Both the position numbers and the translations under genes were made by a program. From the IMG/VR virus record IMGVR_UViG_2645728048_000025: DNA of 15,946 nt. The stretch is one strand, 5' to 3'. Source of the DNA: a virus. Taxonomy: Duplodnaviria; Heunggongvirae; Uroviricota; Caudoviricetes. Of this stretch, positions 2,278 through 15,946 are shown piece by piece. Within the stretch, counting starts at the first letter, position 1. Each line of letters opens with the position of its first letter. The notes beneath the pieces are model-generated. The model did not search any database and was not told the origin of the DNA. It saw only the letters and a list, made by a program, of their open reading frames with translations.

Positions 2278-2456
2278 CTTGTTTTCCTCGCACGTTCTCT
2301 AAGCCACCGGATATCCCACAGGTGAGCCGTGTAGTTGAAGGTTTTTACGTCAGATTCTTTTGGGATTGGCTTGCGTTTATTTCTGGAGCGTTTCGTTGGA
2401 AGGTATTTGCAGTTTTCGCAGATTATGTCGGTGATACTTCGTTGCTGTCGCCTCAT
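2274..2456 (-). CDS. ninE: NinE family protein (60 aa)
   Basis: Internal ATG of the 90-aa track ORF, preceded by AGGAGG; product [64 protein letters not shown] overlap with the methyltransferase stop. Confidence 0.6.
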
Positions 2457-2980
2457 TCCGCCCTCCTGACGCCCTGCCCGATCGCCATCAATGCCGCTTT
2501 GGATACGGTAGTAAACATCCGTCGAGGACTGATGAACGGTCGCCAAATCAGCAGCATGGAGCCTTTGCTGTTTCCCTTCTTCTCCAGCCCTGTCGATGGT
2601 TCGATAAAATTAATCCGTCCATCAGTGATAATGCGAACTTCGTCGACACTCTCCAGAGCCTTGCTGAACCATCCGACTGACATATCCTCTGGCACAAGCA
2701 TCACTACCGTCTGTCGCTGTCGTATGCACTGCTCAGCGGCTTTTTCCACCCACGGCCTGATATTGCTGTACGGTGGGTTATTCCAGATTGCACCGTGGCT
2801 TACCCACTCAGAATTGAGCGCGTCGTCGGCCTCAGTTAGCCAGTGAGCACACAGAGCATTTTTGTCGCTCGCTGCCGAATCCAGCCAGAATCCAAACTCA
2901 ATATCCAGTGCATCAAAAAGCCAAAGCGGCGTTTGCCAGCAGTCCTTGTCGTGTGATGGCGTATTTGATTTGATAGTCAT
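2453..2980 (-). CDS. Phage-type DNA N6-adenine methyltransferase (orphan, no cognate endonuclease seen)
   Basis: NPPY motif ([10 protein letters not shown]), characteristic of N6-adenine methyltransferases. Start chosen at MTIKSNT (ATG 2980, AGGGAGAG RBS) because it overlaps the NinB stop; the track start at 3007 would overlap NinB by 31 nt. Confidence 0.78.
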
Positions 2981-3423
2981 GCAGCTCTCCCTTTTCGTTG
3001 TGACCATTCATACTCTCGCCAGGAGTCATCACTCCACCGCACGTTGCGCTCTGAGCCGAACCAGAACATGATTTCGATAAGCTCAGTCATGCTGGCCTTC
3101 CGCATTTTGCTGGTACGCACGCCAAGCATGACAACGCCACCGTCGATACCAGGCACACTTCGTTGCTCCAGTTTTTTGGTCTTAAGCCACAGGGCAGTGA
3201 ACAGGTCTTTCCAGTCTTCCGGCGCCAGCCGTTGACCATGCCATAGCACCTGACGCGAAACATCGTTCAGCATCGGCCACATACGGTCATTCTGCGCTTT
3301 GCTGCGCTTGGGTTCTTTAACGTGGACTTCGTGGGGTGACTTGTCGTCGATGGGTAGTGAGAGAATGGCGTCTATGGCGTTATTTCTGATTGCTTCGTTG
3401 CGAAGCAGAAAGGTTTGCTTCAT
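2977..3423 (-). CDS. ninB: NinB (Orf-family recombination mediator)
   Basis: From the internal start MKQTFLLRNEAIRNNAIDAILSLP ... [19 protein letters not shown]; collinear with lambda NinB as recalled. The track ORF begins 34 codons upstream at a non-ATG start. Confidence 0.8.
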   Translation of the reverse strand: MKQTFLLRNEAIRNNAIDAILSLPIDDKSPHEVHVKEPKRSKAQNDRMWPMLNDVSRQVLWHGQRLAPEDWKDLFTALWLKTKKLEQRSVPGIDGGVVMLGVRTSKMRKASMTELIEIMFWFGSERNVRWSDDSWREYEWSQRKGRAA

Positions 3424-3616
3424 CTCCTGCTCTCCGGTTCCATTTTTCAGCCGCCGCAGCAACTGATGGTGCCCATGCCCCCCTGGCTTCACAGAGGTCA
3501 CATTCTGCATAGCCCCACACATCAATATTTATTCCGGCCTCAACCCACAGACGAGCATTACCGCCGCAAAACGGACATTCTTTTAGCTTTGGCTGGGTTA
3601 ATGATAGGTCGCTCAT
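3380..3616 (-). CDS. Lar-family restriction-alleviation protein (78 aa)
   Basis: MSDLSLTQPKLKECPFCGGNARLWVEAG...AAAEKWNRRA; the CPFCGG ... AWNRR pattern is typical of Lar-family proteins. ATG at 3616 preceded by AAGGAG. The 3' end overlaps the ninB start by about 44 nt. Confidence 0.6.
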   Translation of the reverse strand: MSDLSLTQPKLKECPFCGGNARLWVEAGINIDVWGYAECDLCEARGAWAPSVAAAAEKWNRRAGDEANLSASQRSNQK

Positions 3617-3626
3617 GCTCACTCCT

Positions 3627-3842
3627 TCACTTAAAATCCAGACTCCGGATAATTCTGTTGCGCTGAAACTCATTGTTGAGTTTGAACAACCGTCGAAGAA
3701 CACGGTCACGCGGATAGCGTCGTGCGGCAGGTGAATGCTCATACAACTCATCAAGCGGCAAACTGGACGATGAACGATACCGATACCAACGCACCAACTC
3801 TTCACGAAAATTAGCCCTGACAAGCTCAGCTATCGTACTCAT
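3627..3842 (-). CDS. Hypothetical protein (71 aa), basic and Arg-rich
   Basis: ORF MSTIAELVRANFREELVRWYRYR... with GAGGAGG about 9 nt upstream of the ATG. No recognisable family. Confidence 0.5.
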   Translation of the reverse strand: MSTIAELVRANFREELVRWYRYRSSSSLPLDELYEHSPAARRYPRDRVLRRLFKLNNEFQRNRIIRSLDFK

Positions 3843-3974
3843 TTCTTAAAACCTCCTCAAACGCATTCTGACGCATTTTTCATTCTCGCTGCTTATCGGC
3901 ATGCCTTGCACGTGCTTACCTCACCACAGAGCGATTGTGATGCCTTAAAAGCGATTTATTGAAGTGATATTTGC

Positions 3975-4254
3975 TTAATCGAAATTCTTTTCTTTGATTC
4001 CTGCGGCCCTGATGGCTTTCATTACTGCAATTACCGTTTTGTCACGCCCATCCTCATAACCCATCGCATAAGCACCTTCTTCACCATCTTTCCAAAGGTC
4101 GTCATTCGATTCGGGCCAGTCGATATCCAGTTCAATAGCAGAGCGCGATGCCTGCCATATCACCCAGGCAAACTCTTTTAATTCATCGTCTCCCGTGAAC
4201 TGGCTTTTGTCTTTTGACCACCAGTTTTCAAACTGTCGGTAGCTATCGTTCACT
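3975..4254 (-). CDS. Hypothetical acidic, Trp-rich protein (about 92 aa, GTG start)
   Basis: Track ORF 3975..4268 starts at TTG inside the terminator T-tract; the GTG at 4254 preceded by GGGGGAGAGGGAA is a better start. No recognisable family; first gene after the tR2-like terminator. Confidence 0.45.
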
Positions 4255-4265
4255 TCCCTCTCCCC

Positions 4266-4298
4266 CAAATAAAAAGGCCTGCGATTACCAGCAGGCCT
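4266..4298 (-). terminator. Rho-independent terminator after the helicase gene (tR2 analogue)
   Basis: Perfect 8-bp stem AGGCCTGC / GCAGGCCT with an 8-nt loop, followed on the minus strand by TTTTTATTT; sits 29 nt downstream of the helicase stop. Confidence 0.65.
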
Positions 4299-4326
4299 GT
4301 TATTAGCTCAGTGATGTAGATGGTCA

Positions 4327-5763
4327 TCAGAATCCTCCTTTCTTCTTGGACTGCGGTTCCTCGCGTTCACGGCGGCGCATTTCAGCAGACTGTTGGTCTG
4401 TGTCATAAATAGCGCCATTTGCCTGTATGCAATACACCGTGCCGGTATTGCCATGACGATTGAGGCGAAGGATTAGTTCGGTTTCACCAGGAGGAACGCT
4501 GTCATCAAAAGCACCTTCACGATGGATCCCCACCCAATAATCGCAATCCTGTTCAATCTGCCCTGTATCTCGTGAGTCACTTGGTAATGGGCGTTTATTG
4601 GTTCGGCTTTCCAGTGCGCGGTTAAGCTGTGTCAGAAGCACAACAACGCAATCAAGCTCTTTGGCAAGGTTCTTCAGTCCTTTGGTGATCATGCCGTAAG
4701 CAAGGTCGTTGCGATCGGCCTTCTCAGCAGTCATTAGTGTCAGGTAATCGACCAGAATCATGCCAACACATCCTTTTTCTCGCTTGATTCGACGGCTTTC
4801 GCTGACGATTTGAGCCAGAGATAATCCCGGCGTGTCGTCGATGTAAAGCAGGTCGATTTCACTCAAGCGATTGGCTGTTTCGATCGCCCTGTTGAAGTCA
4901 CCATCGTAATCACCCTGATAGCCGTCATCAGCGTCATTTGTCGCCGGAAGGTAAAAAATATTCGGGTTAACACCTGACTTCTGTCCCACCAGTTTTTCCA
5001 GTATCTGGTCACCTGGCATTTCAAGGCTGAACATCAGAGCGGGCTTTTTCTCATGCACTGCACAGTTGATTGCCATCTGGCTGTATAGCGTCGTTTTCCC
5101 CATCTTAGGGCGAGCGCCAATGACAAACAAAGAGCCTTTCACCAGACCTTTCGGTGACAGCATCCTGTCCAGCGATGGGATCCCTGTGCTCATTCCCCGT
5201 TGTTCGCCTGATGGGTCAAATCGCTTCTCAAGGTCGCTAACCCAGTCTTCCATGACCTCACCAAATGAGCGAAGGCCGCGACGCGATCCGGTTTTTGCAT
5301 GGTCTGTCAGTTGCGTGAAAATCGCCTGAATAGCTTCGTACTTCTGCGTTGCAGTCATTCCATTGCGGGAATAGAGCAATTCCGTCGCTTCAGTCATGCG
5401 GTTGATGGCGTAGCGTTCCATTGCGGTTTCACGAACCTGCATTGCATAGGCAACGATGTTTGCTGCGCTTGGCGTGTTCTTTGCGATCTCAGCGATATAA
5501 GCAAAACCGCCAACAGACGCCGTTAACGATTTACGCTCCAGTTCATCGAAAAGCGTCAGGCCATCTACTGGCTTTTGCTCCCGGTGCATTCTGGTTATTT
5601 CTTCGAAAAGGATTTTGTGTGGTCGGCCGTAAAATGAATCAGGCTTCAGCATCGCCAGAACTTTCTGGACGCGCTCACTGCTGTCATCATCCAGAAGCAA
5701 TCCACCAATCACCGCCTGCTCTGCCTCGATGCTATGGGGCGGCGCATAAAAATTATCGGTCAT
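4327..5763 (-). CDS. Replicative DNA helicase, DnaB family (P22 gene 12-like)
   Basis: Walker A GARPKMGKTT and DnaB-like layout over about 478 aa. ATG at 5763 (MTDNFYAPPH) preceded by GAGGGTGAA is preferred over the track's GTG start at 5778; it overlaps the O-like stop by 11 nt. Confidence 0.88.
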   Translation of the reverse strand: MTDNFYAPPHSIEAEQAVIGGLLLDDDSSERVQKVLAMLKPDSFYGRPHKILFEEITRMHREQKPVDGLTLFDELERKSLTASVGGFAYIAEIAKNTPSAANIVAYAMQVRETAMERYAINRMTEATELLYSRNGMTATQKYEAIQAIFTQLTDHAKTGSRRGLRSFGEVMEDWVSDLEKRFDPSGEQRGMSTGIPSLDRMLSPKGLVKGSLFVIGARPKMGKTTLYSQMAINCAVHEKKPALMFSLEMPGDQILEKLVGQKSGVNPNIFYLPATNDADDGYQGDYDGDFNRAIETANRLSEIDLLYIDDTPGLSLAQIVSESRRIKREKGCVGMILVDYLTLMTAEKADRNDLAYGMITKGLKNLAKELDCVVVLLTQLNRALESRTNKRPLPSDSRDTGQIEQDCDYWVGIHREGAFDDSVPPGETELILRLNRHGNTGTVYCIQANGAIYDTDQQSAEMRRREREEPQSKKKGGF

Positions 5764-6514
5764 CGTGTTCACCCTCACGAACTTTCAGGTAGGTATTATC
5801 GTTAAGCAGGAAATCAAATCCCTTTTTGTGCCAGACGGTTCCGCGATGATGGTTTGGGCGCTCTTCGAACATCCATCGGCAATTTTCGCCTACGTAGCTC
5901 AAATAATTTCTCCAGTCCTGCATCGTGAACCCATGCCCGTCAAGCTGGCGGGTTATCACTCCGGCTTTGCGCCAGAACGTTCGGATCTGGTTTTTACGCT
6001 TGTCATTCAGTGCGCGGATTCTTGGCGCTTCAGGAAGGATTTCGTGGTAAGCATCGACAACATCCTGACAGCTAACGGAAGGTTTTTTCTTGTCAGACTT
6101 TTTGTCTGCTGTGGCACTCTCTAATACGTCAGTATTAGAGATATTATTTATATTATTGTTTATGGACAACCGTTGGACAACCGTTGGACAATTTTTTGCC
6201 TGAAAATCGTCATATTTAACGATTGTAAACAGGCTAAATTTCTTCCCCATCGAGCAAATATTAAGCATCCCTTTCGACTCAAAAGTCCGTAATAAGCTCC
6301 GAACTTTGTTGTCGGGGATGAATGTTTCTCTGACCAGCGACGGGCGTCCAGTTATCATCTGACCGCGATCAACAGTTATCGGACCGATATCCGTATTGAC
6401 GACAGTAGATTCGTGATTAGCCTTGAGGATTAAGTGAAGCCAAAGATGTACTGCCTGAGAGTCCTTATAGAGCCTGCTGTCCATAAACTGGCGGTGTATA
6501 GAGACATACCCCAT
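5753..6514 (-). CDS. Replication initiator, lambda O-like / P22 gene 18-like
   Basis: Start chosen at MGYVSIHRQFMDSRLYKDSQAVHLWLHLILKA (ATG 6514 preceded by CAGGAGG), a typical replication-protein-O N-terminal domain. An Asn/Ile-rich linker (SINNNINNISN) is encoded by the AT-rich ori segment. It sits upstream of the helicase. Confidence 0.8.
   Translation of the reverse strand: MGYVSIHRQFMDSRLYKDSQAVHLWLHLILKANHESTVVNTDIGPITVDRGQMITGRPSLVRETFIPDNKVRSLLRTFESKGMLNICSMGKKFSLFTIVKYDDFQAKNCPTVVQRLSINNNINNISNTDVLESATADKKSDKKKPSVSCQDVVDAYHEILPEAPRIRALNDKRKNQIRTFWRKAGVITRQLDGHGFTMQDWRNYLSYVGENCRWMFEERPNHHRGTVWHKKGFDFLLNDNTYLKVREGEHDDR
6118..6195. repeat. Candidate origin of replication inside the O-like gene: palindrome, AT-rich tract, 11-bp iterons
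   Basis: 24-bp perfect palindrome TCTCTAATAC-gtca-GTATTAGAGA (6118-6141); AT-rich tract 6141-6162; tandem TGGACAACCGT at 6163-6173 and 6174-6184 plus a partial third copy TGGACAATTTT (6185-6195). Confidence 0.55.
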
Positions 6515-7038: not shown

Positions 7039-7096
7039 ATGTAAGTATTTCCTTAACAAATAAGAAGTTATGCGCATCAACTTATGCGCGTTGTAT

Positions 7097-7139
7097 TCCC
7101 GCATTTCGGCGGGAATGAGGACCATGACTGTTAAAGAGC
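7097..7139 (-). promoter_or_regulatory. nutR: boxA GCTCTTTAACA plus boxB hairpin
   Basis: Minus-strand boxA (plus 7129-7139) and boxB TCCCGCCGAAATGCGGGA (plus 7097-7114), immediately downstream of cro; both elements identical to nutL. Confidence 0.7.
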
Positions 7140-7146
7140 GGTGTTG

Positions 7147-8917: not shown

Positions 8918-9190
8918 ATGACAGTAGTCATTACATATCTGGCTGACGATAACGCCAGAAATCGCCGCAGAGCACGCAGACAGGCTCAACGTGAACAGGC
9001 AATGCAAGAGCAGCAACTGGCGCGAAAAATTGCGCTAAAGCTCTCTGGTTGCGTCAGAGCAGATAAAGCAGCATCACTCGGAAGCCTTCGCTGCAAGAAG
9101 GCAGATGAATGCAGTGGAAGTATTTGCCTGCCAAACGTAGCTCTTTACGCGGCAGGCTACCGTAACTCCAAACAACTGACAGCAAGATGA
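8918..9190 (+). CDS. N: N-like transcription antiterminator (arginine-rich motif)
   Basis: 90-aa ORF with N-terminal ARM (DDNARNRRRARRQAQREQAM); GGAGG 5 nt upstream of the ATG; first gene downstream of PL/nutL. Confidence 0.72.
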   Translation: MTVVITYLADDNARNRRRARRQAQREQAMQEQQLARKIALKLSGCVRADKAASLGSLRCKKADECSGSICLPNVALYAAGYRNSKQLTAR

Positions 9191-13968: not shown

Positions 13969-14169
13969 ATGCAACACGAACTACAACCTGATTCACTGGT
14001 TGATTTGAAATTCATCATGGCCGATACTGGCTTCGGTAAAACCTTCATCTATGACCGGATTAAGTCCGGCGACCTGCCTAAAGCCAAAGTTATCCACGGA
14101 CGAGCAAGATGGTTATATCGTGACCATTGTGAATTCAAAAATAAGCTCTTAAGCCGCGCCAATGGGTAA
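13969..14169 (+). CDS. AlpA/Xis-family small DNA-binding protein (excisionase-like, 66 aa), with no adjacent integrase
   Basis: LVDLKFIMADTGFGKTFIYDRIKSGDLPKAKVIHGRARWLYRD fits the AlpA-type winged-helix pattern; GGAGA upstream of the ATG. Confidence 0.55.
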   Translation: MQHELQPDSLVDLKFIMADTGFGKTFIYDRIKSGDLPKAKVIHGRARWLYRDHCEFKNKLLSRANG

Positions 14170-14698: not shown

Positions 14699-15946
14699 CT
14701 ATATTGCTGAAGGTACAGGCGTTTCCATAACTATTTGCTCGCGTTTTTTACTCAAGAAGAAAATGCCAAATAGCAACATCAGGCAGACAATACCCGAAAT
14801 TGCGAAGAAAACTGTCTGGTAGCCTGCGTGGTCAAAGAGTATCCCAGTCGGCGTTGAAAGCAGCACAATCCCAAGCGAACTGGCAATTTGAAAACCAATC
14901 AGAAAGATCGTCGACGACAGGCGCTTATCAAAGTTTGCCACGCTGTATTTGAAGACGGATATGACACAAAGTGGAACCTCAATGGCATGTAACAACTTCA
15001 CTAATGAAATAATCCAGGGGTTAACGAACAGCGCGCAGGAAAGGATACGCAACGCCATAATCACAACTCCGATAAGTAATGCATTTTTTGGCTCTACCCG
15101 ATTCACAAAGAAAGGAATAATCGCCATGCACAGCGCTTCGAGTACCACCTGGAATGAGTTGAGATAACCATACAGGCGCGTTCCTACATCGTGTGATTCG
15201 AATAAACCTGCATAAAAGACAGGAAAAAGTTGTTGATCAAAAATGTTATAGAAAGACCACGTCCCCACAATAAATATGACGAAAACCCAGAAGTTTCGAT
15301 CCTTGAAAACTGCGATAAAATCCTCTTTTTTTACCCCTCCCGCATCTGCCGCTACGCACTGGTGATCCTTATCTTTAAAACGCATGTTGATCATCATAAA
15401 TACAGCGCCAAATAGCGAGACCAACCAGAAGTTGATATGGGGACTGATACTAAAAAATATGCCGGCAAAGAACGCGCCAATAGCATAGCCAAAAGATCCC
15501 CAGGCGCGCGCTGTTCCATATTCGAAATGAAAATTTCGCGCCATTTTTTCGGTGAAGCTATCAAGCAAACCGCATCCCGCCAGATACCCCAAGCCAAAAA
15601 ATAGCGCCCCCAGAATTAGACCTACAGAAAAATTGCTTTGCAGTAACGGTTCATAAACGTAAATCATAAACGGTCCGGTCAAGACCAGGATGAAACTCAT
15701 ACACCAGATGAGCGGTTTCTTCAGACCGAGTTTATCCTGAACGATGCCGTAGAACATCATAAATAGAATGCTGGTAAACTGGTTGACCGAATAAAGTGTA
15801 CCTAATTCCGTCCCTGTCAACCCTAGATGTCCTTTCAGCCAAATAGCGTATAACGACCACCACAGCGACCAGGAAATAAAAAAGAGAAATGAGTAACTGG
15901 ATGCAAAACGATAGTACGCATTTCTGAATGGAATATTCAGTGCCAT
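14699..15946 (-). CDS. cscB: LacY-family (MFS) oligosaccharide:H+ symporter, sucrose permease CscB-like (415 aa, complete)
   Basis: N-terminus MALNIPFRNAYYRFASSYSFLFFISWSLWWSLYAIWL and overall layout match LacY-family permeases, and to my recollection E. coli CscB specifically. The start codon is at the last base of the window. Confidence 0.8.
   Translation of the reverse strand: MALNIPFRNAYYRFASSYSFLFFISWSLWWSLYAIWLKGHLGLTGTELGTLYSVNQFTSILFMMFYGIVQDKLGLKKPLIWCMSFILVLTGPFMIYVYEPLLQSNFSVGLILGALFFGLGYLAGCGLLDSFTEKMARNFHFEYGTARAWGSFGYAIGAFFAGIFFSISPHINFWLVSLFGAVFMMINMRFKDKDHQCVAADAGGVKKEDFIAVFKDRNFWVFVIFIVGTWSFYNIFDQQLFPVFYAGLFESHDVGTRLYGYLNSFQVVLEALCMAIIPFFVNRVEPKNALLIGVVIMALRILSCALFVNPWIISLVKLLHAIEVPLCVISVFKYSVANFDKRLSSTIFLIGFQIASSLGIVLLSTPTGILFDHAGYQTVFFAISGIVCLMLLFGIFFLSKKREQIVMETPVPSAI

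Follow-up and report, generated by a model that had tools for sequence, protein, structure and literature searches.

Genes and signals between the helicase and ninB

The window analyzed here, a stretch of 15,946 nucleotides from a Caudoviricetes virus record (IMGVR_UViG_2645728048_000025), contains a series of small genes lying between the replication module and the nin genes of a lambdoid early operon. All of the genes in this region, together with its terminator, belong to the minus strand, and transcription proceeds toward lower coordinates. The series is headed by an open reading frame (positions 4327–5778) for a DnaB-like replicative helicase, so annotated in matching records, which occupies the position of gene P and, closing the replication module, stands upstream of the accessory genes. 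It is followed by a hydrophobic frame of 25 codons that resembles ninA (MTIYITELITGLLVIAGLFIWGRGK; 4250–4327), recognized from the sequence itself and from the annotation of phage P22, and by an intrinsic terminator (4265–4298) located within that frame. Beyond these lie a gene with a GTG start that encodes an acidic protein of 92 residues (3975–4253), an intergenic spacer of 132 nucleotides (3843–3974) at whose 3′ end lies the GAGGAGG that serves the following gene as ribosome-binding site, and a gene for a basic, arginine-rich protein of 71 residues (3627–3842). A gene for a Lar-family restriction-alleviation protein of 78 residues (3380–3616) comes next, and the series ends with ninB (2977–3423), which encodes a recombination mediator of the Orf family (PF05772, 9.1e-49). 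Two further features of the window bear on the expression of these genes. A nutR-like site composed of a boxA and a boxB-like hairpin is found on the minus strand between cro and cII (7096–7140), and an N-type antiterminator gene is found on the plus strand (8918–9190; PF25694, N_peptide, 3.7e-15).

The strong terminator that the preliminary description had placed after the helicase gene, with a GC-rich stem of 8 bp and a T-tract, is indeed present at 4298–4275, where the two arms of the stem, AGGCCTGC and GCAGGCCT, enclose a loop of 8 nucleotides and are followed by TTTTATTT. The predicted folding energy of the hairpin is −16.1 kcal/mol (z = −2.65 relative to shuffled sequences). That this structure is “tR2-like” turned out to be an understatement, as the hairpin and its tail (TTTTATTTGG) are identical to those of tR2 in lambda and are identical also in P22. 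Moreover, the sole terminator-like site in the ren–ninB interval of lambda is exactly the hairpin and tail of the window, and its location matches that in lambda as well, past the replication genes of the pR operon and ahead of ninB. No variation was seen across six different contexts, P22 among them, in the hairpin, the T-tract, or the GGGGGAG that lies just past it. Judged by its sequence, the terminator is the tR2 of phage lambda, conserved together with the small ninA frame that surrounds it.

This 25-residue frame (4327–4250), in which the hairpin is contained, had been overlooked in the preliminary description. It is joined to its neighbors on both sides, with the helicase stop codon (TGA, 4329–4327) overlapping the ninA ATG as TGATG, the hairpin following just downstream, and the ninA stop codon overlapping the GTG of the 92-residue protein as GTGA. 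The peptide that the frame encodes is kept across 85 flank variants, in which Leu8 is specified by five synonymous codons.

As had been noted from the outset, the two small proteins that follow are of contrasting composition. The product of the open reading frame that runs from GTG 4253 to 3975 is acidic and rich in tryptophan (pI 4.4, net charge −9, 6 Trp), whereas that of the frame at 3842–3627 is basic and rich in arginine (pI 10.8, 14 Arg, net charge +7). The accompanying statement that neither has a recognizable family must be withdrawn for both. The 92-residue protein matches phrog_343 (4e-29) and belongs to PF26207 (Phage_phiTE_015), an assignment that is precomputed for a cluster 100% identical to it (P0001) and for nearly all of its homologues; a local Pfam scan returned no match for this protein, the PF26207 model being evidently absent from the copy of Pfam that was used. 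The 71-residue protein is a member of DUF7301 (PF23975), matching positions 1–64 of the 65 in the profile (3.8e-26, 91.4 bits compared with a gathering threshold of 27), and likewise matches phrog_1785 (2e-33); it is predicted to form a helical hairpin. With respect to function, scans of both proteins against Pfam, NCBIfam, and PADLOC identified no functional family, sequence-profile searches of the PDB identified no relative of solved structure, and a literature search for DUF7301, for PF26207/phiTE_015, and for the RefSeq accessions found no paper.

Both open reading frames are, on the evidence of how their sequences vary and how they are preceded, evidently real genes. In comparisons with diverged alleles, dN/dS for the two is 0.39–0.44 in the annotated frame and 0.84–4.0 in the other frames, and both have good Shine-Dalgarno sequences, that of the 92-residue protein being the one that serves ninB in lambda. 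The N terminus of this protein, MNDSY, aligns with the family N terminus, M-D/T-E-S-R. An alternative TTG start at 4268, which would give a version of 97 residues, was rejected, as it falls inside the T-tract of the terminator and the family N terminus aligns with the start at GTG 4253. A frame of 147 residues that extends Lar N-terminally (3823–3380) and overlaps DUF7301 was set aside as well, the substitution pattern favoring the DUF7301 frame. A match of DUF7301 to P22 Cro proved to stem from P0112, a chimera that the first alignment had included, and was lost once that sequence had been removed.

An exhaustive profile search with PF26207 gathered 462 clusters at 50% identity, almost all of them stand-alone proteins of 75–140 residues, and all members of the family map to phrog_343. 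No informative domain fusion was found among these clusters. The family is typified by three conserved motifs, M-D/T-E-S-R-x-Q-F-E-x-W, W-x-x-W-Q-A-S-R-A-A-I-E-I-E-L-P, and A-I-R-A-A-G-I-K-V-K-E, which are separated by two hypervariable segments. One phage record names the gene for the 92-residue protein “ninA” by its position.

The variable slot between tR2 and ninB

The order of genes in lambda is P–ren–tR2 (PMC3640518), with ren upstream of tR2 and ninB directly after it. The three small genes of the window lie downstream of tR2, so that they fill the tR2–ninB slot and not, as had been proposed, the place where lambda carries ren. The counterpart of the ren slot, bounded by the replication gene and ninA/tR2, is empty in the window and is filled by orf28 in VT2-Sakai. 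One locus in particular (L170) combines lambda P, a Ren protein of 96 residues, tR2, a membrane protein of 68 residues, a PF26207 gene, and ninB, in that order; as Ren precedes tR2 and PF26207 follows it, the two occupy different slots.

How variable this slot is can be seen from a survey of 109 viral contigs that were anchored on the exact tR2 sequence, each with enough DNA downstream of the anchor. All 109 have, past tR2, a ninB-like gene that forms the fixed downstream border of the slot. In 55 of the contigs the slot is empty, with ninB found 10 nucleotides past the anchor, and in the other 54 it holds 0.2–1.3 kb of extra genes, which agrees with the original description of a variable accessory-gene slot behind the terminator. 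The inhabitants of the 54 occupied slots include PF26207 (37 contigs), the 68-residue membrane protein (26), DUF7301 (15), a protein of 108 residues with an N-terminal hydrophobic segment that is probably membrane-anchored (14), and Lar (11). One conserved joint at which these contents change is the GGGGGAG just past the T-tract of tR2; another is the 5′ overlap with ninB. Each of the three small early genes of the window is a cassette of its own, recombining independently of the others at conserved joints of this kind.

This stretch of DNA is by no means rare. Over 100 Stx and related phages that have been sequenced carry copies that are 97–100% identical, nearly all annotated as hypothetical, and of 5426 complete E. 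coli genomes 2017 have a match to sequence from the region. The region is one that is already catalogued, a widely sequenced variable stretch of lambdoid and Stx phages in which both small proteins belong to existing families. Taken as a whole, it probably represents the variable slot that the pR operon of a lambdoid prophage, here one resembling the Stx phages, carries between its ninA/tR2 linker and ninB. The main value of the analysis lies in the corrected annotation, in which the terminator becomes the tR2 of lambda, the slot becomes that between tR2 and ninB, and the supposed orphan proteins take their places in catalogued families.

Associations among the three small genes

The opposite net charges of the acidic and the basic protein (−9 and +7) and the proximity of their genes, which are neighbors in the window and in many Stx phages, had led to the suggestion that the two form a toxin-antitoxin system or some other obligate two-protein module. 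Moreover, in a minority of loci (L089, for example) a PF26207 gene is immediately preceded and overlapped by a diverged DUF7301 paralogue. The distribution of the two families argues otherwise. Among the 54 occupied slots anchored on tR2, both are present in 10, PF26207 alone in 27, DUF7301 alone in 5, and neither in 12, from which an odds ratio for co-occurrence of ~0.9 can be computed. In the 10 loci that have both, the order of the genes is that of the window in 6 and the reverse in 4. At one locus (L165) DUF7301 directly follows tR2, and PF26207 is found immediately 5′ of ninB and without DUF7301 in prophages of E. coli, Salmonella, and Hafnia; outside the Stx-phage group, in the contexts that were sampled, PF26207 usually has no DUF7301 neighbor. 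The stand-alone character of PF26207 across its 462 representative clusters, free of domain fusions, also speaks against an obligate partner.

Nor does the arrangement of the genes in the window suggest a module. The spacing described earlier as tight is, for the 92- and 71-residue proteins, one of 132 nucleotides without coupling, and only DUF7301 and Lar are close to each other, at 10 nucleotides. Neither small protein matches any of the toxin, antitoxin, or defense models of PADLOC, Pfam, and NCBIfam. Of the features by which type II toxin-antitoxin systems are recognized, obligate co-occurrence, a coupled bicistronic operon of their own, and homology to toxin or antitoxin folds, none was found for this combination. 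Because of the independent assortment, the 132-nucleotide spacer, and the lack of toxin or antitoxin homology, the idea of a toxin-antitoxin or other obligate pair is not supported and must be regarded as extremely unlikely. PF26207 and DUF7301 instead assort independently of each other across the loci compared and are evidently not partners.

The relationship between DUF7301 and Lar is of a different kind. The third small gene (3616–3380) had been called Lar-like, and this assignment is confirmed by scores above the curated cut-offs of both PF14354 (1.8e-10; 41.3 bits compared with 28.6) and TIGR03655 (62.3 bits compared with 39.6), as well as by the four cysteines of a zinc ribbon, provided by CPFC at residues 14–17 (C14 and C17) and by CDLC at residues 39–42 (C39 and C42). 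The gene starts 10 nucleotides past the DUF7301 stop codon, and its 3′ end overlaps the start of ninB by 44 nucleotides. The prototype of the Lar family functions in restriction alleviation (PMC2993543). From its family membership, the Lar protein of the window most likely lessens type I restriction of phage DNA that is entering the cell or being replicated. The prototype is only distantly related to the protein of the window.

The same prototype, RalR of the Rac prophage, is also a DNase that serves as the toxin in a type I toxin-antitoxin system and is controlled by the small RNA RalA (PMC4041452). The Lar protein of the window passes the same family models as Lar/RalR of the Rac prophage and has the four-cysteine zinc ribbon, but it fails the equivalog model for RalR in NCBIfam (NF007260; 27.6 bits compared with a cut-off of 113) and so is not a RalR orthologue. 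The settings of the two genes differ also, with RalR encoded in the early-left region of Rac and Lar of the window in the nin region, and Rfam scans at both gathering and E-value thresholds found no RalA-like RNA near the latter.

In every locus that has a close relative of the window's Lar (75 of 75), and in each of the 11 tR2-anchored slots that contain Lar, DUF7301 lies immediately upstream. Together with the spacing of 10 nucleotides and the precedent of RalR as a toxin (PMC4041452), this linkage could be taken to mean that DUF7301 and Lar form a functional pair in which the basic protein serves as a cofactor, a regulator, or a protein antitoxin of a zinc-ribbon protein of the Lar/RalR type. 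The alleles involved are, however, hardly independent of each other. Among 119 phage records, 118 carry the Lar allele of the window at 95% identity or more, and no diverged copies were present in the phage collection, so that linkage by common descent of a single block could account for the association and is inseparable from functional linkage. Furthermore, DUF7301 occurs without Lar at loci L163–L166 and in 4 of the 15 tR2-anchored loci that contain DUF7301. Lar is frameshifted in 933W and in Min27, which makes it dispensable in some phages, and it is interrupted by a premature stop codon at L168; some of the phages in which Lar is frameshifted or stopped have nonetheless kept DUF7301. With the failure to reach the RalR cut-off added to these observations, a functional pairing of DUF7301 with Lar is quite unlikely, and the reading of the three genes as separate cassettes is preferred here too.

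Expression, possible roles, and comparison with known phages

Whether the three genes are morons, as the preliminary description had called them, depends on where they lie and on whether they carry signals of their own. With regard to the first, they separate genes that lie next to each other in lambda and P22, ninB following tR2 directly in the 55 empty slots of the survey, and this part of the designation stands. With regard to the second, a scan of the coding strand from 2900 to 4600 for the sigma-70 consensus found no promoter, although one that is weak or dependent on an activator could be missed by such a scan, and the only terminator in the same interval is tR2. The promoter that had been envisaged in the gap at 3843–3974 therefore has no consensus match. 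In other respects as well the gap is unremarkable. No Rfam match was found in it at gathering or E-value thresholds, RNA folding of either strand is no better than that of shuffled sequences (z = 0.06 and 0.40), and it holds no annotated gene in those of the listed phage records in which the spacer is complete (annotation was checked in 219 phage records).

The signals required for antitermination are, by comparison, readily found. The boxA (CGCTCTTTA) of the nutR-like site lies at 7140–7132 and the boxB-like hairpin, TTCCCGC-CGAAAT-GCGGGAA, at 7115–7096, upstream of the accessory genes on the same strand and the same transcript; cro, cII, and the replication genes are also upstream. Along with the N_peptide homologue at 8918–9190, these elements make the earlier proposal of N-dependent expression a plausible one. 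Transcription would start at pR on the minus strand and run through cro, nutR, cII, O, and the helicase gene to tR2, where RNA polymerase modified by phage N at nutR would read through the terminator, and the three accessory genes would be made as delayed-early products along with ninB and the adjacent Dam methylase. Such N-antiterminated read-through of tR2 from pR is the best-supported mode of expression that we infer for these genes. As termination at tR2 of lambda is only ~50% in vitro (bioRxiv 10.1101/453969), about half of the transcripts, some read-through independent of N is to be expected in addition.

The alternative, that the three genes are true morons expressed in the lysogen from a promoter of their own and beneficial to the host, through superinfection immunity or defense, for example, draws on their insertion between otherwise adjacent genes and on the abundance of the module in E. 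coli (a match in the 2017 of 5426 complete genomes mentioned above). It is nevertheless very unlikely, given the results of the promoter and terminator scans, the tight embedding of the genes in the pR operon, where they reuse the ribosome-binding site of lambda ninB, and the absence of PADLOC matches for any of them. The three genes are probably accessory cassettes inside the pR operon and not morons with signals of their own.

PF26207 and DUF7301 are stand-alone small cytoplasmic proteins, each of which would most likely act individually as an early host-modifying or counter-defense factor. A role in counter-defense is plausible for one or both because of their predicted early expression beside Lar and the Dam methylase. 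A more elaborate version of this proposal, in which the whole tR2–ninB slot is a counter-defense island, PF26207 a diversifying inhibitor of or decoy for host defense, and DUF7301 a dedicated partner of Lar, is rather improbable. The slot is in any case a compact and very common place in which to seek new early phage factors, with sequence from the region found in ~2000 of 5426 complete E. coli genomes and in most Stx phages, and it adjoins both an anti-restriction gene of the Lar type and a gene for Dam methylase. The best candidate among its inhabitants would be PF26207, which is widespread. The pattern of this family, in which hypervariable inserts lie among conserved motifs, would suit a specificity-determining binding protein.

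At the ninA/tR2 junction, lambda and the window have ~77 nucleotides in common, with one mismatch, and share the succession of ninA ATG, hairpin, T-tract, and the ribosome-binding site GGGGGAGAGGGAAGT. In lambda, ninB begins right after this site, whereas in the window 836 nucleotides with three extra genes are inserted there. On the other side of the junction the situation is reversed, with ren present between P and tR2 in lambda and the helicase gene of the window directly abutting ninA/tR2. Lambda Ren is likewise the product of a small accessory gene that adjoins the replication genes, but it is encoded upstream of tR2 and is unrelated to PF26207. P22 has the same hydrophobic frame and hairpin in the form of a 26-residue ninA open reading frame with the terminator inside it, annotated “L2; similar to phage lambda,” which is located, as in the window, between a DnaB-type helicase gene (gene 12) and the nin genes; its slot is empty, with ninB immediately next, while that of the window is filled. 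The closest counterparts are the Stx phages. VT2-Sakai (Sp5; orf28–orf31), 933W, BP-4795, 2851, and CP-1639 share 99.2–99.3% nucleotide identity with the window over 3300–4400 (99.2% for VT2-Sakai), and VT2-Sakai and other Stx phages have the same genes in the same succession, the 92-residue protein (orf29 in VT2-Sakai) being followed by DUF7301, Lar, and ninB. The difference lies once more on the upstream side of tR2, where VT2-Sakai carries a 262-bp cassette with orf28 (89 residues, no Pfam match) between the helicase gene and ninA/tR2, and the window is without it.

Reading frame around the terminator

The lambda-type intrinsic terminator of this prophage (tR2) has its hairpin inside a ninA-like hydrophobic reading frame of 25 amino acids (window 4250-4327, minus strand) that is coupled at both ends, through the overlaps TGATG and GTGA. 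The peptide MTIYITEL[IVMA][TA]GLLVIAGLFIWGRG is retained in 85 distinct flank variants, and its translation is suggested because across these variants Leu8 is encoded by five synonymous codons. Termination at tR2 might then be modulated by translation through the hairpin.

In a second class of loci, which have an HNH endonuclease upstream, only the hairpin of the ninA/tR2 stretch is kept. The sole promoter-like match between 2900 and 4600 (TTCACT, 16 nt, GATAAT; 9 of 12 positions) falls at 3626-3653 on the plus strand, the opposite strand, where it would be antisense to the gene of the 71-aa slot protein DUF7301; this single match, compared with a shuffle mean of 2.0, is within chance expectation.

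The ninB border and broken copies of Lar

Unrelated proteins that precede the ninB allele of the window, including Lar, some variants of the 92-aa slot protein PF26207 and other slot genes, share a common C-terminal end, EAN(I/L)xASQRSNQK. This tail (window 3380-3423, minus strand), found also in the proteins P0013, P0018 and P0023 and in the slot-protein clusters C11 and C13, overlaps the ribosome-binding site and start of ninB, so that the border between slot and ninB is a mosaic joint within overlapping reading frames.

The Lar gene itself is broken in CP111102.1 (EDL933-Stx/933W), NC_010237.1 (Min27) and the compared locus L168: the 933W and Min27 copies each align as two separate pieces, and the L168 copy contains a premature stop. 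In some Stx phages, therefore, Lar is either decaying or not required. As a phage N6-adenine (Dam-type) methyltransferase (2453-2980, minus strand) directly follows ninB, Lar and a self-methylating enzyme lie about 1 kb or less apart in the same early operon.

Variants of DUF7301

Besides the usual DUF7301 downstream, a diverged paralogue of 73 aa, which matches the DUF7301 family profile at 4.7e-20, is present in some phages; at locus L089 (2313-2868) this paralogue immediately precedes a PF26207 variant, and the two genes overlap. The metagenomic protein P0112 (68 aa), which joins a Cro/YdaS-like N-terminus to the C-terminal half of DUF7301, is probably a recombinant. A match to P22 Cro in the profile search was spurious, caused by P0112.

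Comparison with known prophages

At its right end the prophage has an adjoining TorI-type excisionase (13969-14169, plus strand) and LacY-family oligosaccharide transporter (14699-15946, minus strand), with no integrase between them and no tRNA gene within the window. This layout resembles the KplE1/CPS-53 module, in which the integrase lies at the other prophage end.

Unlike the window, VT2-Sakai carries a precise 262-bp cassette between the helicase and ninA/tR2 (L001 2529-2790, against window 4324-4327), whose 89-aa product, orf28, has no Pfam match. In lambda, the position held by this cassette is instead occupied by ren.
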